A stretch of DNA of 64,000 bases. Source: an uncultured virus (IMG/VR IMGVR_UViG_3300046782_000572) (lineage: Duplodnaviria > Heunggongvirae > Uroviricota > Caudoviricetes). The stretch is taken from the IMG/VR virus record IMGVR_UViG_3300046782_000572. One strand, 5' to 3'. The translations under genes were made by a program, and so were the position numbers. Positions within the stretch are counted from its first letter, which is position 1. Each line of letters opens with the position of its first letter. The notes below the pieces were generated by a model. It was not told the DNA's origin. It was given only the letters and a program-made list of their open reading frames with translations, and searched no databases. This document shows, in pieces, positions 3,563-64,000 of this stretch.

Positions 3563-3653
3563 AAAATATCCCTGCCTTGCCTCGCCATGCCACGCCCGGC
3601 CACACCCAGCCTGGCCGTGCCGGGCCGTACCGCGCCTCGCCTCGCCGGGCCAT
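3563..3653 (-). ncRNA. (GGY-NN)16 pentamer tract, putative gapped-code guide RNA
   Basis: 16 in-phase RCC-NN units on + (3574-3653, two use ACC), tail GGCAGGGATATTTT on -; NN string matches 58928-58969. Confidence 0.8.
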
Positions 3654-5198: not shown

Positions 5199-5861
5199 TC
5201 AAGCCGCACTCGATTTCGCCTGAGCCTTTACATTCGCCCAAAGCGAAATCAGCCTTTCCATCTCATGTGTGAAACCGTCGGATCGCGGCCACATATCGGT
5301 CTCGATCAGCACGCAAAGCTGACGCAGATGAAACGTCGCCTTGCCGCCGCTGTATCTGCGATTGAGCGCTTGTTGTTCTGTGTTGAGCGTTTCGCCGTGT
5401 AGGTGGCTCAGGCCGCCTTTGAGTGCGATCGGATGGCCGTCTGGCGCGTTGGCAAAGCCGCGCTCGATCTTCTCAATCCTTTCGAGAGGCAGACGAACCA
5501 CCTCGGCAATCTGCTCGCGCGTATAGCCATACTGCTCCAATCGAAGCACCGAATGACGGATCGTATATTGATCAAGCGGCGTGCCGTGGCCGATATTTAA
5601 CCTAACAGCGTCGGCGAACATGTCGGCGTCGCTGGCATACTTTTTCTCGATGACATCGACCTTTGTTATGCCCTTGCGCCGGTAAACTTCCAAACGGTGG
5701 CGCCCATCGACGAGACGGTGCGTCTTTACTTCCACAACGAGTGGAGGAAACTTGGCGCCAGCCTCGCCGGCAAGCGCAAGCCGCTGAATGTTGAATTCGG
5801 ATACGCCATTTCTTGGATACATAGTCTCGTCGAATACTATTTCGCCGATCGCTAGTTTCAT
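5199..5861 (-). CDS. ParB/Srx N-terminal domain protein
   Basis: FPPLVV....RLVDGRHRLEVYR and N..HG.PL motifs; AAGGAGG RBS before MKLAIG; the longer ORF-track start is translated repeat. Confidence 0.8.
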   Translation of the reverse strand: MKLAIGEIVFDETMYPRNGVSEFNIQRLALAGEAGAKFPPLVVEVKTHRLVDGRHRLEVYRRKGITKVDVIEKKYASDADMFADAVRLNIGHGTPLDQYTIRHSVLRLEQYGYTREQIAEVVRLPLERIEKIERGFANAPDGHPIALKGGLSHLHGETLNTEQQALNRRYSGGKATFHLRQLCVLIETDMWPRSDGFTHEMERLISLWANVKAQAKSSAA

Positions 5862-6156: not shown

Positions 6157-6798
6157 TCAATCCTCGACTGTGAACGATCTCACCGCGAAGCGGCCAAACG
6201 GCCCGTTTTTTTGTGGCCGATAATCGCCGACGCCCATGCGGTTGCCGGCGTCGCCCATGATTTCGGCGATGATCTCCGGGGTTTTGATCAGCACCGGATC
6301 AAATTCAACTCGAAAGGTCGCGGACCACTCATCGAAACGCGGTCGGCGTCGAATGATGCCCTGGCGCTGTACAATCGCGCGTCTGCTGTCGATCACATAA
6401 TCCTTGATCGGCGAGCCATCGCGACGCTGTAGAGGGATCAATTCTTCGGCCACCACAACGTGGGCCAGGTGGCTCTTCATGGTCGAACGCTTGGCCTTCC
6501 AGGCACTGGCGGCGCCAAGCAGCGAGGCGCGAAAGGCTTCGCCCTTGATTGCGCAGGTGCCATCCGGAAGGCGATAGACGCCGTTCTCGGCTTCTACTTC
6601 GGCCTCGGGGATTCTCGTGCCGCGCTTGGCGCTCGTATCGCCGCCCATGGATTCCGGGTTATGAGTGAGCAGCGGTTTGATGCCATCGATGGTGATCTGA
6701 ATTGTGCGGATCGTTGGCGTCGCTGGCCCAAGTGCGGGTTCTGACGCCGCCGGTATGGAAACTTTCGCTTTTGGTTTCGTCGTCGTTTTATCCAACAT
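6157..6798 (-). CDS. Stand-alone RAMP/Cas7-like protein (Vipr-like), putative RNA-guided effector
   Basis: GIKPLLTH, GEAFRASLLGAA, RRRPRFDEW, G-rich loop AGNRMGVGDYRPQKNGPFGRF; GGAGAG RBS; flanked by pentamer tracts. Confidence 0.75.
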   Translation of the reverse strand: MLDKTTTKPKAKVSIPAASEPALGPATPTIRTIQITIDGIKPLLTHNPESMGGDTSAKRGTRIPEAEVEAENGVYRLPDGTCAIKGEAFRASLLGAASAWKAKRSTMKSHLAHVVVAEELIPLQRRDGSPIKDYVIDSRRAIVQRQGIIRRRPRFDEWSATFRVEFDPVLIKTPEIIAEIMGDAGNRMGVGDYRPQKNGPFGRFAVRSFTVED

Positions 6799-55938: not shown

Positions 55939-56496
55939 GACTTCGGTTCCTCCATGGGGGTTGCTGGTGCCACCTTCCGCGATTTCACGGTTTAGATGAC
56001 CGGACCACCCGCCGGCGGGGAGGACCGAATCGCGGCTTGATCTCGCCTCTCACGAGCGCCCGTTGATGGCGCGGCTGCGGGTAGAACTTCCTCCCCTTTT
56101 GGTGTTGCACGTGAAACATCCGGGTTGTGCGGAACGACCGCACACGCCGTGGTAAGCAGCCGCCCCCGGAGTCCGTGGCAGTCCCCGGGAGCGGCCGTCC
56201 CGCGCCGGCGCCGTTGACTCGCCAGCGTAGGAAGCCTGTGGGCGCGGTTTCTGGCGCCTGGCGCCCAGGTGCGGGCGCCGCATGGGCGGGGCCTTTGGCG
56301 AAGGTGGTTCGGGCGGGCGGCGGCATTGCCACCCGCCCGCCGCGCGCCGGCTCACTGCCCGGTTAACCGGCGCTTGGCTCTTATCGGGGTGCGGTTGACA
56401 CGGCCGGCGGTTCCGCTTGGCACGCGAGTCGCCGGCGAGAACAGATGCGAACGCTGGCGCCGTGGCGCCGAGAACGGATGGGGAAGCATCGGAAGG

Positions 56497-56630
56497 AAAA
56501 CCCTGTAAATAACTGTGTAACCCATTGATCTTGCTGCTATGGCGCAAATTGCGGGCTTCCGTGATCCGCCTTTTGGGCCAATGGTTTACCGGGTTTTTTA
56601 CAGGGTTTTTTTTCGACGCTGTAAAAACCG
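56497..56630. repeat. Inverted/direct AAAACCCTGTAAA-type repeats, putative att/arm region of integrase 2
   Basis: AAAACCCTGTAAA 56497-56509 and its exact inverse at 56597-56609, variant at 56585-56597. Confidence 0.5.
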
Positions 56631-56645
56631 CACTTAACGCGATTC

Positions 56646-57836
56646 TCACTTCACCCTCCTGATCGCGGCGCGCCGCGCTTTCGCCTGATCGGCAAAAGCC
56701 TGATCGAGCAGGTCGGCGGCCTGATCGGCGAGCGCACGTTGATTGGCGAGCCGCACGTAATAGCTCGCCATCTGATCGGTCTGGTGACCGAGCTGGGCGC
56801 GGATCAGCGGGATCGAGCCGCCGTTGAGCGCCAGCATGATGCCGGTGTTCTTGCGCAGCCCATGCACCGTGTAGTCGCCGGCGTCGATCTCGCGCAGCAC
56901 CCGCTTGATTTGATGCGAGAGCCCGGAACGCGTGTAGGGCTTTCCCCAATGGCTGAGCAGAAGGTGTTCGCCACGCCGCGGGGTGCGCTTCAAGATATCT
57001 TGAAGCATCTTCGGCGCCCGGATGGTGAGCTGTGCCTTGGTTTTTTTCTGCACCACTTGAATGTGGGCGCCATCGTAGTCCGCCCATTTCATCTTGATCA
57101 CGTCGGACACGCGCTGCCCGGTGCACAGCAACAGGTGAAAGGCGAGCGCGAGCTGGTCGGAGCACGCCGCTAAGAAACGCTGCTGCACGTCGGCGGGCCA
57201 ATCCTTGTGCTCCTGGCGGACGCTGTAGGGCTCCGGCACGTCGCCATCGCGCATCGGATTCTTGACGGCGCCAATGTCGATCTCGGGGAGCGTCCTGGCG
57301 AACCTCCACAGGTTCGACAGCAATGCCTTTTGCAACGACGCGCACGACGCCGAACGATGCTTCCGCTTGATGCGGTCGATGTAGAGCGTGGCATTGCGCG
57401 GATTGAGATCGGTCAGCTTGACCGCCGCCATGCCCTCTTCGCGCATCAGGTCGAGCCCTTTGCGGTAGTTGTATTGGGTATCGGCGGCGTAGGGCTTTTC
57501 GATCAAGTCTGGCATGTCTGGCCGCGCAAAGAAATCCGAGCGCAGCCATTGCTCGATCACCCATCCGATTGCTGGCGGCCGATAGACGTCGCGGCCATCG
57601 ATACGCTCGACCAGCTTGGCGGTGTCCGGCCTCGGCCGGATCATGAGCGATGGCCTGCCACCCGGCTTTGGGTTGCCGCCGTGCTTGCCGGCGCCAAGTT
57701 CGCTGATCAGGCGGTCGTATGCGCGAGCGAATTCGATTGAGGATTCGTCATCCGGCAAGCGCTCTATGGTCTTGCCGTTGGCGCGGAAGTAGAGGTGCCC
57801 CGTCTTCAGACGTTGGATGTATTTGCGCTTCGTCAC
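56646..57836 (-). CDS. Tyrosine recombinase/integrase
   Basis: TGQRVSD, QKKT, HGLRK, LGH, YYVR. Confidence 0.92.
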   Translation of the reverse strand: MTKRKYIQRLKTGHLYFRANGKTIERLPDDESSIEFARAYDRLISELGAGKHGGNPKPGGRPSLMIRPRPDTAKLVERIDGRDVYRPPAIGWVIEQWLRSDFFARPDMPDLIEKPYAADTQYNYRKGLDLMREEGMAAVKLTDLNPRNATLYIDRIKRKHRSASCASLQKALLSNLWRFARTLPEIDIGAVKNPMRDGDVPEPYSVRQEHKDWPADVQQRFLAACSDQLALAFHLLLCTGQRVSDVIKMKWADYDGAHIQVVQKKTKAQLTIRAPKMLQDILKRTPRRGEHLLLSHWGKPYTRSGLSHQIKRVLREIDAGDYTVHGLRKNTGIMLALNGGSIPLIRAQLGHQTDQMASYYVRLANQRALADQAADLLDQAFADQAKARRAAIRRVK

Positions 57837-58090
57837 GTGTCCCTCGCTAACAGTTCATCGATCGTGTTGCGCGGCGTTTCCGGTTCCCCCTCGTAATTCT
57901 CGATGAACGCATCGAGCGAGAGACGGTCCCAGAACACCAAGCCTTCGAGCCGCTTCGGCTTCGGCAACCGGCCTCTTTCCACGAGTCGCAGGAACGTGCT
58001 GGTTCCCATGGAAAGGTAGGCTGCCGCTCGGTCGGCCCGCATGGCCCGCGGTGGGTAGGCAAGCGAATCCGCCAGTTTGTGGCCCACCAC
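57833..58090 (-). CDS. Excisionase/AlpA-like protein
   Basis: PPRAMRADRAAAYLSMGTSTFLRLVERGRLPKP. Confidence 0.8.
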   Translation of the reverse strand: MVGHKLADSLAYPPRAMRADRAAAYLSMGTSTFLRLVERGRLPKPKRLEGLVFWDRLSLDAFIENYEGEPETPRNTIDELLARDT

Positions 58091-58134
58091 GCGGCTCCGG
58101 TGTATTAGGTTATTCGTGCAACCCTGACAAGACT

Positions 58135-58317
58135 TTATTTCCGATCAAGGAAACCTGCGACCTCGAACAGCTTCTCTTCGGCGTCCGCAAAGCGCCGGCT
58201 GAGGTCGGCCGGAATGCCCTGGTCCTCATGCGGCGCGGCGTCGATGCACGCCAGGAACGCCGCGCGCGCGTCGCGCCATTCGATCGCGGCATCGAGGAGT
58301 CGTTCGACTTGCGTCAC
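58135..58317 (-). CDS. Hypothetical protein (homologue of 2811-3185 C-terminus)
   Basis: Direct sequence similarity. Confidence 0.7.
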   Translation of the reverse strand: MTQVERLLDAAIEWRDARAAFLACIDAAPHEDQGIPADLSRRFADAEEKLFEVAGFLDRK

Positions 58318-58721
58318 AGCGGGTGCTCCGTCTGCGTCTTTCCGTTCGCCTTGCCCCGCAGTCGCGCGAGCCGCGACGCGGAAATCCGGCTCACTGCCTT
58401 GAGTCGAGCGCGCAACTTAGCGTTCGTCTCAGTCAAATATTTTGCCTCCCGGCTCGCCCAAGTACCCCAAAGGAACTCCCGCAGACTTTCATGCTCTGTG
58501 CGGACAGCGTTTTCCCATTGACCGCAATAATGGCCGGTTGTGACCTCCAACCACGCCGGGTGAAAGGTACAGGTTGCAGCGATATGCCGTTCGGTCTCTC
58601 TGATGAGTCTTCTGGCATCGTAGCGATCGTATTCCTCACCTTCGAACGTTGGTTTCCAGTCCGCCGGTATCTTGAACCTGACGTGCTTGCAGGTCAGACA
58701 GGCTTTGCGTTGTTCAGTCAC
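58314..58721 (-). CDS. Hypothetical Cys-containing protein
   Basis: CLTCKH, CTFHP, HYCGQW; GTGA overlaps. Confidence 0.6.
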   Translation of the reverse strand: MTEQRKACLTCKHVRFKIPADWKPTFEGEEYDRYDARRLIRETERHIAATCTFHPAWLEVTTGHYCGQWENAVRTEHESLREFLWGTWASREAKYLTETNAKLRARLKAVSRISASRLARLRGKANGKTQTEHPL

Positions 58722-58906
58722 AGCTTGCCGATCTTCTCGATGGCGGCGCGCGCAATCTCGCGGGCTTCGTATTTGGTCATTGGCGTCCACGTATGACCAA
58801 ACGGGTCTGGATGCGCACCGCGAAAGCCCTCGACGATGGCCTCCAATGCCTCAAGCAGATCGGGTCCGGCCTTTCTGATGCGCTCAAGCTCTTCTAGGGT
58901 TTTCAT
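58718..58906 (-). CDS. Hypothetical protein (homologue of 3361-3546)
   Basis: Direct sequence similarity. Confidence 0.75.
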   Translation of the reverse strand: MKTLEELERIRKAGPDLLEALEAIVEGFRGAHPDPFGHTWTPMTKYEAREIARAAIEKIGKL

Positions 58907-59401
58907 TCAAATCCCCATGTGCTCGCGCATCACGCGGACCCATTGGGCCGGCGTTGCTTCGTCCGGCATGCCGACTTTCGTCGCGTCGAGAGCCGCCGCC
59001 ATCTTGCGTATCCCGTGCAGGACCGTGGTGTGGTCCCGGCCAAAGCGCCGGCCGATTTCCGGCAAGGTGCGCAACGTCAAATACTTGCACAGCGAAAACG
59101 CGATTTGGCGCGGGGCCACGACATCTTTAGTGCGGCGCACCGATAGCAGCTTGGCTCTTTTCACTTCGAATTCAGTGCAGACCGCCCGCACAATCTCCTC
59201 GACACGCACCGGCAGCAGCGGCGGCTCGATCGGCTCGACAGGCGGCGGCTCAGGCTCGACGCGGCGCTTGACAGGCGGCGGCGGCGGAGTCGTTCCGACC
59301 TCGGAGCGGTGGGCAAAGAAATGGTTTCGGATCGTGGCGTAGCTCGCAATCATCTCTGCCGCGCTGTGGTAGTTCGACACGTGGGCAGGGGTGCATCTCA
59401 T
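58907..59401 (-). CDS. DnaA C-terminal-like HTH protein (homologue of 3659-4189); contains the apparent guide target
   Basis: [39 protein letters not shown]. Confidence 0.82.
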
Positions 59402-59601
59402 TGCAGAACCTCCCGTTCGCTTTCGATCTCGGCGACGCGCGCCATCAAGCTCGTCATCGCAGCATCTCGATCCGCGTCGTGATGATGGAGAAACCACGCG
59501 ATCATGGTCGCAAGCATGCCCTCGCGGCCGTCATCGTTGAACGGTGCCAAGATATCGCGCATGACGTCGAGATCGCGATGGACACGGCGTTCCAATTTCA
59601 T
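59398..59601 (-). CDS. Hypothetical protein (homologue of 4192-4392)
   Basis: Direct sequence similarity. Confidence 0.75.
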
Positions 59602-60746
59602 GACGGCATCTCCTTCAAAAACGCGAGCGCGGCCTGGACCTCCTTCGCCATCTCGTCAGTGTCAGCCGCGGTCATCTGAGCGCCGTTGCGCATCGTTCTC
59701 GCGTTCGCCCCGGTCCACCACGTGTCGAGCATCGCGGCATCCGCGGGTTTTGCGGCGGCGATGATCTGGCGCACCAGCAGCTTGAAAGTGTCGACATCCT
59801 TGGGCGGACGCTTCTGCGCCATGCCGATCAGATCCCCGATGGTGGGTTCTGGCTCGGCCTGCGTATGCGACTCTTCGCCGGCGTCGTGTTCGACCACAGT
59901 GCCGTCGCCGGGCCGCGGGTCGCCGGGATCATCACCGCCGCCGGCGCCGAACTGCTCAAGCGCCGCCATCGCGCTGCGCGGCTGGCGTTTGGTGACCTCC
60001 TTGCCGCGCTCTTTCGCGCCCTCGAAATCATACAATTCATCGTCTCGGTGCAAGAGCGCGTCGAGATCACTCGATGATGGGAGTTGCTTTGCGTGCCGGC
60101 GAATGACCGTTTTCTTTGCCATCTCGCCGTAGGTAACGCGGTCGTGCCACGGCCCGCCCTTTTTTGCGCGAGAGAATTTTTGCCTGATCTCCTCGACCTG
60201 GCGGATCGTCATCACTTCGCGCGACAGCGTGCCATCCTTGTACTTGCAGATCGAATAGACGTGTGTGATAGGGCGCTCGGTGCCGCCGGTCAGCGCCGGC
60301 TTATGCATGATATGCGGCTCGTCGCCGAGCTGATAATCGAACATGTCGCCGTCGCGCACCTCGCATGCCCACAGGTCGGCGATCTCGCCAGAGTTGCGTG
60401 CCTTCTTCCGAATGCCGGCGATCATCGGCATGTAGGTGGCTTGGTCGCTGCTTTTGCGTTGACCATCTTCGCCGCTTTCGCCGAAAGGCACGATCGCAGC
60501 CTCGCGGCCGTCAGGCAGCAAGCCGTCTTGTGCGCATTTCATGCAGGAATTGAAAATGCTCTGACGCGTGCAGGCGAGCAGCTTCGCGTTGTTTTGGATT
60601 GCAGTCATCACCACGCGCATAAAACGCTCGACCGGAATGTGAGCGGGCAACGCATAAGAAAACTGCGGCCCCATCTTTTCAAGGTCGCGCCGGAATTGAT
60701 CGAGGACGCTGAGCTGCTTGCCGGCCGGCTTGGTCTGTGTATCCAT
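59598..60746 (-). CDS. recT: RecT-family single-strand annealing protein
   Basis: Homologous to 7002-8180; AQDGLLPDGREAAIVPF, GPW..YGEMAKKTVIRR. Confidence 0.92.
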   Translation of the reverse strand: MDTQTKPAGKQLSVLDQFRRDLEKMGPQFSYALPAHIPVERFMRVVMTAIQNNAKLLACTRQSIFNSCMKCAQDGLLPDGREAAIVPFGESGEDGQRKSSDQATYMPMIAGIRKKARNSGEIADLWACEVRDGDMFDYQLGDEPHIMHKPALTGGTERPITHVYSICKYKDGTLSREVMTIRQVEEIRQKFSRAKKGGPWHDRVTYGEMAKKTVIRRHAKQLPSSSDLDALLHRDDELYDFEGAKERGKEVTKRQPRSAMAALEQFGAGGGDDPGDPRPGDGTVVEHDAGEESHTQAEPEPTIGDLIGMAQKRPPKDVDTFKLLVRQIIAAAKPADAAMLDTWWTGANARTMRNGAQMTAADTDEMAKEVQAALAFLKEMPS

Positions 60747-60807
60747 TTTTTCCCTCCTGTTTGAGTTTTCGACGGTCCAGGCGCATTTGCGCGCCCGCCG
60801 CCTTCTC

Positions 60808-62107
60808 GCCTTGCCTGGACCCGCCTCAACTCGACTTGCCTCGACCCGACAAGCCGGGCCACGCCGGCCTCACCAGACCACGCCGCCCGCGCAGTGCCAC
60901 GCCGTGCCACGCCCCGCATTGCTGTGCCGAGCAACGCCGGCCACGCCATGCCTTGCAGTCCAAGCACTGCCTCGTCGCGCCTTGCCCGGCCGCGCCGGCC
61001 GTGCCCCGCCACGCGCGGCCACGCCATCCCAGGCCTCACCGCGCCGTTCCCCGCCAAGCCGCGCCCCGCCGGCCAAGACCGCCCCGCCCGGCCTTGCCGT
61101 GCCGCGCCGCGCCACCCCCGGCCTCGCCGGCCATGCCACGCCGGACCTTGCGTTGCCGCGACCAGCCAAGCACCGTCCCGCCTCGCCGGCCACGTCTTGC
61201 CGGACCTTGCCCAGCCTCGTCTCGCCACGCACAGCCGCCGACATGCCAAGCCCGCCCCGCCTCGCCTCTGCCGGCCCTCCATGACCCCCGGCCTCGCCGG
61301 CCGCGCCAGCCCACGCCCCGCATCGCCCTGCCGGGCCTTGCCCGGCCGCGCCGGCCAAGCCATGCACCGCCTTTGCCCGTCCCGCATCGCCATGCCCCGC
61401 CGCGCCGGCCCCGCACTGCACGGCCTGGACGCGCGAGGACGCCAAGCCGGCCGCGCCAAGCCCGGCCCCAACCGAGCCGCGCCGGCCTCGCACGCTCCGC
61501 CGGGACTGGCCCACCCCGGCCAAGCCTTGCCACGCCGGCCAAGCCCTGCCTGGGCACGCACTGTTCCGCCGCGCTGTGCCAGACCGTGCCAAGCCAAGCC
61601 GAGCCGGCCCAGCCGGTGCACTGCCGGCCTCGCCAGGACGTGACGGGCCATGCCAGGGTCGGCCGTGCCAGGGCATTTCCCGCCGTGCCTTGTCTGCCGC
61701 CGGCCTCGCCGGCCAAGCCAAGCCGAGCACTGGCAGGCACAGCATCGCGTAGCCGCGCCTCGCTCTGCCGCGCCGCGCCGGGCCGGCCACGCCCTGCCAT
61801 GCCAGGACAGGCCAACGCCATGCCATGACCCGCACGGTCACGCCGGCCTCGCGCGCCATGTCCGATCCGGTCTGGCCACGGCTCGCCCTGCCTCGGCTCG
61901 CCTCGCCTCGCCTGCCGAGCCAGCCCATCCCAGGCCCGGCCATGCCGAACCCGGCATCGCCCTGCCGGGCCACGGCTGGCCTCGCCCGGTCACGCCCGGT
62001 CAGACCATGCCTGCCTTGCCACGCCGGCCATGCCTTGCACCGCCCAGCCTGGACTTGCTCTGCAGGGACCTGCCTCGCCTGCATTGCCTCGCTGGCCATG
62101 CTGCCTC
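60808..62107 (-). ncRNA. ~1.3 kb degenerate (GGY-NN)n array, putative multi-guide array
   Basis: Pentamer periodicity with roughly 20 GCCGGCC phase-shift delimiters; overlapping ORFs here are low-complexity artefacts. Confidence 0.72.
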
Positions 62108-62108
62108 T

Positions 62109-62642
62109 TCACACTGCTTTGCCGCTGGGTCTATCGCCCGGCGGTTTGCGCCGACCGCTGCCGGGAGGCGGCGGCCGTTTTCCACGATCCAGACGTTCCC
62201 GAATTGCGAGAACGTCCGAAAGCAAGGCTTCAAATTCCCTGCTAAGATCGAGCATGTGCGCGACCTGCCGCCCGCGATCGATGCCGGCCTCAAGGCGCAC
62301 AAGCTCGTTTTCGATGATCTGGCGAGCATCCGCACGGCGTTGCGCTGCTTGTGTCAGCGCAACGTAGCCACCGCCGACCGGCGAACGGGGATCGTGAACG
62401 TAGTAGATCGCCGTCGCTGGCCGCTCGTCGATTTCGACAACGACACGAACCTCGCGGATAAGTCGTCGCGCGGTGTCGAGACGGTGCTCGTGCGCCGCGC
62501 TGGCGTCATTCCAGTCGAAATCATCGTGCAGAAGGTGCGATGGTTCGCGCGCCGCCTCGACGACGCGCTCAGGACGCACGACGCCGTCCTTGTCGGCCAG
62601 CTTGGTGATGGCGTGCGCCTTGGAAGCTCGCGAGCGCATCAT
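62109..62642 (-). CDS. Conserved phage protein coupled to the RAMP-like gene (putative accessory factor)
   Basis: PERVVEAAREPSHLLHDDFDWNDASAAHEHRLDTARRLIR; ATGA overlap with 62639-63652. Confidence 0.72.
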   Translation of the reverse strand: MMRSRASKAHAITKLADKDGVVRPERVVEAAREPSHLLHDDFDWNDASAAHEHRLDTARRLIREVRVVVEIDERPATAIYYVHDPRSPVGGGYVALTQAAQRRADARQIIENELVRLEAGIDRGRQVAHMLDLSREFEALLSDVLAIRERLDRGKRPPPPGSGRRKPPGDRPSGKAV

Positions 62643-63652
62643 GCGAACTCACCAATGGCTGGTGGGCGGCGGCCGTTTGCCTTCGCCGCCAGGGCCGCGG
62701 TTTTGCGCGGCCGTCCGGGTTTGCGGCGCTCATTGGATTCGGCTGCGGCGACCAGCTCGGGGACCAGGGATCGCGGCTTCTTGCCTTTTCTCGCGTGCCC
62801 ACTCGCAGACGACGGAACCTCCATCTCGCGGCGCCGCGTCTCGGTTTCGAACCACGCCAACAGCTCTTCCGACTCTTCGTCGTAACATATCGGCGACGCC
62901 AGCGCCGCGTCCTGGGGCTTGCGGCCCATGGTGCGCATGACCTCGGCGAACTGCTTGTCGTGCTCGTTGACCAGCATAAATTGACCGTAAGAGCCGGCTC
63001 CCTTCTCAGGGCGCCAATCGCCGACCCCCATGATGATGCCGCCCGCGCCAGCGAGGTTGGCGACATCGCGTTCCTTGATGAGGCTGCTAACGAAGCGCAC
63101 CGGCAGCACTGCGCACCACTTTTCGATGATCGCGCGGGTGCGAATGTTCGGCGTCTTGTTGATGCCGCCTTCGCGCACCACCGACATGAACAGCTTCGGC
63201 ACGCCATAGATCGGGATATCAACTTCGGGGATGCTGGTGAGCTGGCCCACCGCGGTCTTGGTGGCGCCCGGGATGCGCAGCGCCGCATCGGTGATTGCGC
63301 TCTTGAACGCGCCGGCCGGCATATGCAGGCGCGCCGCGCGGCTGTCGTCGCGAGTGCGATAGACCGACGCCTGAAACTCGGCGACCGGATCATGCTTCAA
63401 CGTCGATTGTTTTTCGGCGTCGTTCTTCTTGCGGTCCGGGAAAAGCAGTTGCTGCCGCGCCTTTTCCGACATGCGGTGCATAATCAGCGGCGTAGTGCCG
63501 AGCAGATAAAACTTAACAAGCCCCATTTTCAATTCCATGATCTCGATACTCTCGGGGAGGGGCTTTTTCCCGGTCGCGAAGGGTTTTCCCGACGACCAAT
63601 CAATTGCATCCGATGTCGATGTCTTCGTTTCAGTCTTTGGCTTGCGTCCCAT
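62639..63652 (-). CDS. Second stand-alone RAMP/Cas7-like (Vipr-like) protein
   Basis: GTTPLIMH, PAGAFKSAITDAA, IRTRAIIEKW, AGGIIMGVGDWRPEKGAGSYGQF: same motif order as 6157-6798. Confidence 0.75.
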   Translation of the reverse strand: MGRKPKTETKTSTSDAIDWSSGKPFATGKKPLPESIEIMELKMGLVKFYLLGTTPLIMHRMSEKARQQLLFPDRKKNDAEKQSTLKHDPVAEFQASVYRTRDDSRAARLHMPAGAFKSAITDAALRIPGATKTAVGQLTSIPEVDIPIYGVPKLFMSVVREGGINKTPNIRTRAIIEKWCAVLPVRFVSSLIKERDVANLAGAGGIIMGVGDWRPEKGAGSYGQFMLVNEHDKQFAEVMRTMGRKPQDAALASPICYDEESEELLAWFETETRRREMEVPSSASGHARKGKKPRSLVPELVAAAESNERRKPGRPRKTAALAAKANGRRPPAIGEFA

Positions 63653-63746
63653 CTGGTTCCTCCTGTGGGGTGCGCGTGATCGAGTCGCCTCACGCTGGCG
63701 TTATTAGCGGGCAGAGGCGCATCACTGCGGCTCTGCCCAACGCGGG

Positions 63747-63811
63747 GCCTAGACATGTCAGGCCGTGACAGGCCAAGCCCCGCCCGGCACCGCCTAGCCT
63801 CGCCACGCATT
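63747..63811 (-). ncRNA. Degenerate 13-unit pentamer tract
   Basis: gcc/gac/gtc/gca-NN units in phase, beginning right at the YqaJ stop. Confidence 0.6.
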
Positions 63812-64000
63812 TCATTCTGCATCCTCCTTAAGCCGCTGCGTTCTCAGCACGCGAAAACTAGTCGCGGCCTGCAGGCGTTCTTTTCTGTGAGCAGTTTTCA
63901 AACTGACGCGCCAACCGTGGATCAGTGCGGCTTCGAAATCGCCGATCTTGTCTTTCAACTCTGTTTCCGCCTCAACCTTGGCGGCTTCAGCCTCTCTGAT
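63812..64000 (-). CDS. YqaJ-like recombinase, 3' end only (partial)
   Basis: Manual translation AETELKDKIGDFEAALIHGWRVSLKT..RVLRT aligns with the C-terminus of 8610-9557. Confidence 0.8.
   Translation of the reverse strand: MREAEAAKVEAETELKDKIGDFEAALIHGWRVSLKTAHRKERLQAATSFRVLRTQRLKEDAE

Follow-up and report, generated by a model that had tools for sequence, protein, structure and literature searches.

The locus examined here (positions 60,808 to 63,811, minus strand) lies in a 64,000-nucleotide (nt) stretch of DNA from an uncultured Caudoviricetes virus (IMG/VR record IMGVR_UViG_3300046782_000572; the whole stretch is referred to below as the window), which carries two related prophages, elements 1 and 2, about 50 kb apart in one genome. 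The locus belongs to element 2, where a 337-amino acid (aa) protein, a 177-aa protein and a 1.3-kb tract of repeated pentanucleotides stand side by side; do these form one system, and is the tract a set of guides, a coding sequence or a structural repeat? Our answer, to which we give a probability of about 0.93, is that they constitute a VIPR (Viral Interference Programmable Repeat) system made up of Vipr, a vap-like protein, a staggered array of about 21 guide RNA (vrRNA) units and a short upstream tract. According to the parts of the defining preprint on which we rely here (as we do throughout for it and its companions), a VIPR system consists of a minimal RAMP (Vipr), vrRNAs of 9–16 YNNGG repeats and an accessory vap gene (10.64898/2026.04.26.720920). 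Such systems are mostly phage-borne and comprise seven types, and only the NN bases pair with the target, one target base being skipped per pentamer (10.64898/2026.04.26.720920). Since systems of this kind were already published in 2026, the locus confirms them and is not a new kind; it belongs to the staggered-array class and has a partner other than vap1. Its features are as follows.

62639..63652, minus strand: vipr gene, coding for a 337-aa minimal Cas7-like RAMP (open reading frame (ORF); phrog_4652, E = 6.9e-19; family profile A1 to PDB 36pp_D; Foldseek)
62109..62642, minus strand: 177-aa vap-like accessory gene (ORF; phrog_15946, E = 1.1e-18; overlaps vipr by 4 nt)
60808..62100, minus strand: staggered vrRNA array, 21 units of GGYNN-type pentamers with 4-nt steps GGCC/GGC (periodicity, parse, shuffles, scaffold counts)
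63755..63811, minus strand: short upstream vrRNA-like tract, about 9–12 GGYNN pentamers, just upstream of vipr (sequence inspection)

The 337-aa protein

The sequence-only reading of the window described the 337-aa protein (p337) as RAMP-like from the order of its motifs, and these are indeed present as GTTPLIMH, GAFKSA, RTRAIIEKW and GVGDWRPEKGAGSYGQF; they coincide with conserved columns of an alignment of 30 family sequences in which G52, R173, W179, G205, G209, P215 and G223 are invariant. PHROGs places p337 in phrog_4652, a family of unknown function, and Pfam has no family for it or for the 177-aa protein, the neighbouring genes that were scanned giving only RecT, integrase, helix-turn-helix (HTH) and DnaA_C families. 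As a lone query p337 scarcely finds the Vipr of phage SUSP1 (E = 0.75); a profile built from 30 homologues (A1) matches one solved structure, PDB 36pp “SUSP1 Vipr protein” (chain 36pp_D), at E = 7e-34, and hhalign aligns the family profile over 179 columns, at a probability of 99.6%, with the Vipr of wV8, a phage that like SUSP1 is a Felixounavirus. When the AlphaFold model of p337 (mean pLDDT 78.5) is compared by Foldseek, Csm3/Cas7-family chains rank first (probability 1.0; 79 matches at E ≤ 0.001), the top ones with E-values of 7e-6 to 4e-4, TM-scores to the target of about 0.5 and sequence identities of 8–14%, and together with the profile match to SUSP1 Vipr these bear out the RAMP fold that had been claimed.

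In SUSP1 Vipr the residues that read GGY are H17, R138, D177, W178 and R179 (10.64898/2026.04.26.720927), and H59, R173, D212, W213 and R214 of p337 align with them (pairwise alignment, hhalign); R173 is invariant in the 30-sequence alignment and R214 nearly so. The homologous minimal RAMP and the GGY-reading residues that mark a VIPR system are thus both found in p337 and, judged by this homology, p337 is a Vipr family protein, a minimal Cas7-like RAMP. A search of genome contigs with p337 found no relative. The core of the protein spans about residues 43–228, and a helical, basic C-terminal extension of about 110 aa follows it. This extension (62639–62960, residues ~230–337) is modelled as helices at 233–284 followed by a disordered, basic tail (pLDDT < 50); 27 of the 30 aligned homologues lack it, while L049 shares its helices and L079 has no more than a short piece at the C-terminus.

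The pentamer array

The downstream tract had been described as a continuous array of pentamers about 1.3 kb long, and its periodicity agrees: self-identity is 0.52 at lag 5, 0.49 at lag 10 and 0.24–0.33 at lags 1–4, and the neighbouring RecT coding sequence, used as a control, gives 0.22–0.32 at all lags. The 4-nt slip that was noticed in it, GCCGGCC (GGCCGGC in the sense of the genes), is present in 20 copies, whereas 1000 shuffles contain 1.6 on average and never more than 7, and with successive boundaries the GCC phase falls by one. These 20 boundaries give 21 units, very close to the earlier estimate of about 20 guides; thirteen units measure 53–76 nt and two 85 nt, five are short (9–42 nt) and a compound one has 181 nt, and they abut at GGCC/GGC with no spacer between them. 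In published “staggered arrays” the vrRNAs overlap by 1 nt (10.64898/2026.04.26.720920, legend of fig. S18). An overlap of 1 nt makes a 4-nt step in a 5-nt lattice, and this is what element 2 has, with overlapping unit ends. Tracts of at least four YNNGG/GGYNN pentamers flank vipr on its sense strand on both sides, as in other VIPR systems, and the upstream tract (63755–63811) corresponds in position to the single vrRNA that precedes vipr in the published layout; a search for targets of this tract found none, its best local score being 12 where shuffles give 11–13.

The scaffold triplet had been thought more degenerate in element 2 than in element 1, and counting supports this: in the 15 parsed units of at least eight pentamers 116 of 184 triplets are GGY, as against 149 of 149 in element 1. 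The commonest element 2 triplets are GGC (109), TGC (17), GTC (10) and GAC (9), with others making up the 184. The variable NN positions hold 16 dinucleotide types, and TA is found only once in 184. This near absence of TA bears on whether the tract encodes a real low-complexity protein, since it leaves all six frames of the tract open, five of them with ORFs of 249–409 aa, and the 409-aa ORF (60870–62099, minus strand) is consequently no evidence of a gene. That ORF does have an ATG start, lies in the operon’s orientation and begins 9 nt past the stop of the 177-aa gene, but the period of the tract is 5 and not 3, the 4-nt steps shift the frame, the three longest ORFs match no Pfam family, and translation would leave unexplained the perfect 1-nt-skip NN matches to foreign genes (below). 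We give a protein-coding tract almost no credence.

No Rfam family reaches its gathering score on the array (the nearest, sX9, scores 26 bits where 44 would be needed, E = 0.15, and is taken as chance), and the Rfam scan found no hammerhead or other ribozyme.

Twenty-four runs are listed as containing this DNA, all of them metagenome DNA. Among contigs from other metagenome runs one variant (run X23) lacks 125 nt (61334–61458), two runs (X16 and X23) have contigs with about 152 extra bases near 61796–61802, and a few base changes between runs lie at 61557–61581 and 61888–61889. These differences suggest that units are gained and lost and that guides turn over on short time scales, with the reservation that repeats assemble poorly and errors are possible.

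Decoded guides and their targets

Fifteen element 2 units (of at least eight pentamers) and 11 element 1 units were parsed as guides, and the NN code of each was slid over DNA under four skip models, one of which, NN.NN., is the published 1-nt-skip rule (10.64898/2026.04.26.720920). The features concerned are these.

60811..60865, minus strand: last guide unit of element 2, 11 pentamers, predicted to be aimed at RecT of related phages (22/22 on the RecT gene of viral contig L140)
7888..7920, minus strand: predicted target of this last guide in the RecT gene of element 1 (19/22 NN; maximum of 18 in 500 whole-window shuffles)
59598..60746, minus strand: RecT gene of element 2 (Pfam RecT family)
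58929..58967, minus strand: predicted target, in the DnaA_C-like gene of element 2, of the element 1 guide at 3574–3651 (25/26 NN)

Reading the units as NN.NN. patterns, as had been proposed, succeeded for two element 2 guides, each of which finds a 22/22 match under the 1-nt skip; of the 15 guides parsed and searched these two rise above shuffled controls in the DNA scanned, and the other 13 do not. The matches of these two have the character of natural VIPR targets (at least 80% of NN bases matched, the skip at the wobble base, no self-targeting). One of the two, at 61129–61187, is treated separately below. The other, the last guide of the array, matches codons VPFGENEEGQK of the RecT gene of L140 (a RecT with 70% identity), and the base that it skips is in the wobble position. 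Scored locally, this guide reaches 22 on L140 and 20 on L143, where shuffles reach 14 at most, and on the RecT gene of its own element it matches 16/22. The sequence-only reading had found no convincing targets in the window for element 2 units, and this stands for 14 of the 15 parsed guides but not for this last one, whose 11 well-formed pentamers match the RecT gene of element 1 at 19/22.

The first 13 dinucleotides of the element 1 guide at 3574–3651 match the DnaA_C-like gene of element 2 at 25/26 (maximum of 20 in 500 shuffles) and their own homologous site at 18/26. In the window this guide scores 26/32 under the 1-nt skip, compared with 19 (0-nt skip) and 21 (2-nt skip) of 32; its match under a 3-nt skip was discarded, being the guide’s own DNA by construction. 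The skipped base is the codon wobble base in every decoded target, as published. Full-length scoring of all 26 window guides left only this element 1 guide above shuffles, and local scoring over about 1.7, 2.3, 0.31 and 4.4 million positions (both strands) added only the RecT match. L139, L140 and L143 are close relatives without Vipr, and Vipr is likewise found in none of five related virus records (G002–G006), whose remaining DNA held no further targets. By these matches the guides of the two window prophages are directed at each other’s genes and at those of VIPR-less relatives; as far as such matches can tell, the co-resident prophages appear to target each other’s early genes (RecT and DnaA_C-like) while sparing their own alleles (16/22 and 18/26). 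Inter-phage conflict is described in the VIPR preprints, which include a “sword and shield” proposal (10.64898/2026.04.26.720920 and companion).

Could the pentamers instead be a structural or protein-binding repeat without guide function, such as an iteron- or centromere-like site, a G-quadruplex RNA or a TRAP-like sponge, with its NN bases in neutral drift? Triplets fixed every 5 nt would suit a polymerising binder, (GGNNN)n could in principle form two-tier G-quadruplexes, and most units have no identified target. However, neutral drift would not yield in-frame foreign matches of 22/22 and 25/26, when shuffles give local scores of at most 14 and at most 20/26, and the partner protein of the array is a homologue of Vipr, a relative of which has been solved bound to such RNA. 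Specific candidates of this sort (a 5-nt RecT footprint, G-quadruplex RNA, a TRAP-like sponge, a centromere or iteron) were dropped because of the Vipr homology and the decoded targets, and we consider a repeat without guide function highly improbable.

A separate observation concerns L140, which carries a single 15-pentamer tract (6602–6674, plus strand) with an element-1-like 3′ end (GGCAGGGAT...). By analogy it resembles the solo vrRNAs that have been described in relatives of SUSP1 and in satellites; no target for it was found in the window (score 11, shuffle maximum 14).

The partner gene

The 177-aa protein (p177) had been called a coupled partner of the RAMP-like protein, and the two ORFs do share 4 nt (62639–62642), which fits coupled translation. 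PHROGs assigns p177 to phrog_15946, again a family of unknown function. In a two-step profile search 22 of the 26 ORFs of the p177 family that were found directly adjoin a Vipr ORF, and the family occurs together with staggered arrays: it is present at 13 of 20 loci that have at least two 4-nt steps and at 8 of 60 others (Fisher p = 2e-5). The AlphaFold model of p177 has a mean pLDDT of 85.8. Its N-terminal 107 residues match winged-helix proteins with VIA-align Z values of 5–6.7, below the level that the tool regards as distinctive, and Foldseek gives no match for the model at E ≤ 0.001; since these fold matches are only middling, p177 may at best be weakly suggested to bind DNA. The p177 family and the SUSP1-type vap1 (wV8 gp095, beside the wV8 Vipr) align with an hhalign probability of 0.1% and so are not homologous, which means that the vap1 of type II systems is not found here, and tblastn with p177 found no match in isolated phages. 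From its distribution and this comparison the p177 family is, in our assessment, a recurrent neighbour of Vipr that is tied to staggered arrays and distinct from SUSP1-type vap1.

Pentamer arrays and Vipr in other phages

Viral contigs were also scanned by DNA pattern only, for ten GCC triplets spaced 5 nt apart ((GCCNN)9GCC), and at least 135 viral stretches were found. Eighty of the listed stretches have 4-kb flanks and 55 are short; nine pairs among the 80 share a contig, so that 71 contigs are represented. Among these listed matches an ORF that fits the Vipr profile lies within 4 kb at 65 of the 80 flanked loci, and one is present at 18 of the 55 short ones. Similarly, when the two RAMP-like proteins serve as tblastn queries, relatives appear at 35 and 44 of the 135 listed loci (22–49% identity), and with RecT as the query at one; at all 19 loci that were compared by eye the array has the GGCNN form on the sense strand of the gene. 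These associations and the common orientation indicate that Vipr and pentamer arrays belong together across very diverse phages. Two or more 4-nt steps are present at 20 of the 80 other loci.

The 15 of 80 loci with no Vipr-profile ORF within 4 kb are L010, L021, L025, L027, L036, L048, L054, L056, L057, L061, L062, L066, L067, L068 and L077; they may be orphan (solo) vrRNAs, or their Vipr may lie further off or be cut by the contig end. Three Vipr loci (L004:3951–4658, L028 and L060) have unbroken pentamer lattices of up to about 120–142 pentamers, with no 4-nt steps or tails.

Comparison with known systems

The element 2 locus resembles published staggered VIPR systems in its lone Vipr RAMP, its accessory gene and its contiguous GGYNN-type arrays with shared unit ends, and also in being phage-borne and in having 1-nt-skip targets with the skip at the wobble base. 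It differs from them in that its array, of 21 units and 1.3 kb, is long and has only 63% GGY in its scaffold, and its step is mostly GGCC/GGC where the 18 other staggered loci that we parsed have GGCA/GGC. With type II VIPR (Escherichia phage SUSP1 and the Felixounaviruses) it shares a homologous Vipr with conserved GGY-reading residues, and the placing of vipr-vap between a single upstream vrRNA tract and a downstream array; in contrast to type II, p337 has the C-terminal extension of about 110 aa, the partner is not vap1, and the units follow one another with neither a 3′ tail nor a pseudoknot. Element 1 is nearer to type II than is element 2, its units being capped by tails and its Vipr finding the Felixounavirus copies directly by tblastn. 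The suggestion that element 2 carries a second subtype is therefore sustained: the two Viprs are only 24% identical, the element 2 array is staggered and tail-less, and its partner belongs to a different family that recurs with staggered arrays elsewhere.

The backbone subunits of class 1 clustered regularly interspaced short palindromic repeat (CRISPR) systems (Csm3/Cmr4/Cas7 and Cas7-11) have the same RRM, G-loop and thumb fold as Vipr, and a periodic base flip driven by the thumb is common to both according to the VIPR preprints (10.64898/2026.04.26.720920 and companions). A class 1 CRISPR-Cas system is nevertheless something different: there are no other cas genes here and no repeat-spacer array with repeats of about 25–40 nt, Tandem Repeats Finder giving only periods of 5–19 nt in the region, and CRISPR repeat families were absent from an Rfam E-value scan of 56000–64000. 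The VIPR period is moreover 5 nt with three bases hidden, not 6 nt with one flipped, and its reading of the target is discontinuous.

Several findings weigh against assigning the locus to VIPR. Confirmation by small RNA sequencing is stated for ribozyme-interspersed arrays and single-vrRNA systems and, in the parts of the preprint used here, not for staggered ones (10.64898/2026.04.26.720920). No type II-like 3′ tail or pseudoknot is found in the element 2 array (element 1 units do have a conserved 3′ end, CAGGGATACTTTG). The scaffold is non-GGY in 68 of 184 triplets (~37%), and altering GGY in SUSP1 abolished silencing (10.64898/2026.04.26.720920). Finally, 13 of the 15 parsed element 2 guides have no target above shuffles in the DNA scanned (~4.4 million positions), and exact seeds of four other element 2 guides gave 0, 3, 0 and 0 matches in viral contigs. 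The three seed matches are probably chance, since they do not extend beyond the seed (23–24 of 38). From the proportion of non-GGY triplets and the dependence of SUSP1 on GGY it follows that part of the array may be decayed, or that p337 may read a looser scaffold.

The first of these possibilities, taken to its end, is a VIPR locus whose array is largely a decaying fossil with few guides still working, most units having lost their targets or being loaded no more. The non-GGY scaffolds and the guides without targets speak for it, as do the five very short units, several irregular steps and the duplicated unit beginnings (for example 61352 with 60996, and 61128 with 61298). Against this, both decoded guides have 4–5 non-GGY scaffolds in 11 pentamers and yet keep a perfect NN code, from which it can be argued that scaffolds of this sort are tolerated in this Vipr clade; other VIPR types are reported to have related consensus repeats (NNNGG, YNNNG, NNNNG) (10.64898/2026.04.26.720920), targets may lie outside the collections that were scanned, and the vipr and vap ORFs are intact. 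We regard a largely fossil array as unlikely, and a VIPR system with a staggered array is the reading that we carry forward.

Proposed mechanism

In SUSP1, Vipr protomers polymerise on the vrRNA, one per pentamer, burying GGY and presenting the two variable bases (10.64898/2026.04.26.720920 and 10.64898/2026.04.26.720927); these pair with double-stranded DNA so that two of every three target bases are read and the skipped one is usually the wobble base (10.64898/2026.04.26.720920), and the resulting gapped R-loop or triplex blocks transcription (10.64898/2026.04.26.720920 and companions). By extension, the element 2 array would be transcribed together with its operon and cut at the GGCC/GGC steps. 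The array lies inside the operon, a promoter and terminator scan (a weak test) gave no minus-strand site within it, and no known RNA family or ribozyme was found, all of which makes one transcript cut at the steps a reasonable supposition and no more. The divergent p337 would have to tolerate degenerate scaffolds, and binding of the Vipr-guide complex would be expected to silence its RecT targets or the patatin-effector targets described next.

A guide that fits CBASS effector genes

One further unit was selected for its mixed composition before any results were known, and its full NN code (22 fixed bases) was searched in metagenome contigs.

61129..61187, minus strand: guide unit of 11 pentamers plus a terminal GGCC, whose NN code spells DGGLWANNPV[MI] (exact gapped matches)

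Its pattern has 30 exact matches in metagenome contigs, where we roughly estimate that about 0.1 would be expected at random (4^22 is about 1.8e13; 241 million records, length unstated). In 29 of the 30 the match is in frame and in the sense direction within ORFs of 161–401 aa that bear DGGLWANNPV[MI], and all 20 full-length ORFs tested fit PADLOC “Effector, Phospholipase” models end to end (E 1e-84 to 1e-118). A PADLOC oligonucleotide cyclase, E2, E1-E2 or JAB gene adjoins the effector ORF at 16 of 18 loci; we take this set to be genes of the cyclic oligonucleotide-based anti-phage signalling system (CBASS) and the effector to be, presumably, CapV. Viral contigs hold a single exact match, to the same patatin motif. 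Of 401 genomes sampled from the class of G007 (a record named Salinarimonas, an alphaproteobacterium), none contains the exact pattern or its backwards control; among the best 30 patatin-family loci from 251 genomes of that class, the guide fits 18–21 of 22 bases at 14 loci, and shuffles fit at most 15.

It is therefore tempting to think that recognition of DGG[LIV]WANNPV, the catalytic-aspartate motif of patatin-like phospholipase effectors of CBASS, is what the guide at 61129–61187 evolved for, and that VIPR may serve here as RNA-guided counter-defence, silencing the effector gene of the host or of a rival element; the wobble-skipping code would let one guide work across many diverged CBASS operons. 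We hold this view tentatively, at slightly less than even chances, for the following reasons. The 30 metagenome matches are homologous and so count as one event. Neither on the 30 CBASS loci from metagenomes nor on the 30 patatin loci from the G007 class does any other guide of either element find a match, and when 365 guides from other VIPR loci were compared with CBASS loci the observed maximum was 15, the same as the null maximum. We also worry that transcriptional silencing leaves effector protein that has already been made, and CBASS operons ride on mobile elements, so that the target could be a rival’s cargo and not host immunity. Because of the homology of the matches, the lack of a second converging guide and these last two caveats, the CBASS reading is kept as a lead and is not our main claim. 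The word CBASS is not mentioned in the VIPR preprints that were searched for it, and among the papers searched none pairs vrRNA with CBASS. Known anti-CBASS factors are proteins that act on the cyclic-nucleotide signal. A functional guide would have the same outcome as these proteins, in that the phage disarms CBASS, but the proposed route differs in being RNA-guided transcriptional silencing of the effector gene.

The two prophages and their neighbouring genes

The early genes of both elements lie on the minus strand. Element 2 starts at its integrase (56646–57836), and the order of its early operon is pentamer tract, 337-aa gene, 177-aa gene, 1.3-kb tract, RecT, small genes, DnaA_C-like gene, excisionase-like HTH gene and integrase. 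The locus is thus set, as VIPR systems are, in a phage or provirus context (integrase, excisionase-like HTH, RecT and DnaA_C-like neighbours) and in a small vipr-vap operon in which the partner is kept beside Vipr. No tRNA genes were found in the window.

Element 1 extends from its integrase (1363–2601) on through a structural module (terminase, portal, capsid, sheath and baseplate genes). Between 3560 and 8265 (minus strand) it has 13 perfectly regular GGCNN tracts of 10–18 pentamers each, most of which end in CAGGGATACTTTG. These tracts occupy seven intergenic gaps among at least eight early genes, not only those beside vipr, and the genes between which they lie include the YqaJ side, RecT, Vipr (6157–6798), a ParB-like gene, HTH genes and a DnaA_C-like gene. 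A target in the scanned DNA was found for only one of the 11 parsed element 1 guides. The ParB-like gene (220 aa, 5199–5861, minus strand) comes after the element 1 Vipr with three arrays between them; it has tblastn relatives at three of the 135 array loci (L034, L042 and L094) and may be the accessory (vap) gene of element 1. Two IMG/VR contigs, L144 and L145, encode proteins 100% identical to those of element 1 early genes and carry the same 11 arrays, which shows that element 1 circulates as a recognisable phage in public metagenomes.

Biological meaning

The element 2 locus provides a well-resolved natural example of the staggered VIPR architecture and links it with one particular accessory family (phrog_15946-like), and its decoded units indicate that scaffold degeneracy need not be accompanied by loss of the perfect code. 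Two prophages with guides against each other’s early genes would make a compact natural case of the proposed “sword and shield” conflict. If the fit of the guide at 61129–61187 to CBASS effector genes does reflect its function, VIPR would in addition have a role in phage counter-defence against host immunity, through a CBASS-directed guide of a kind that has not been published.

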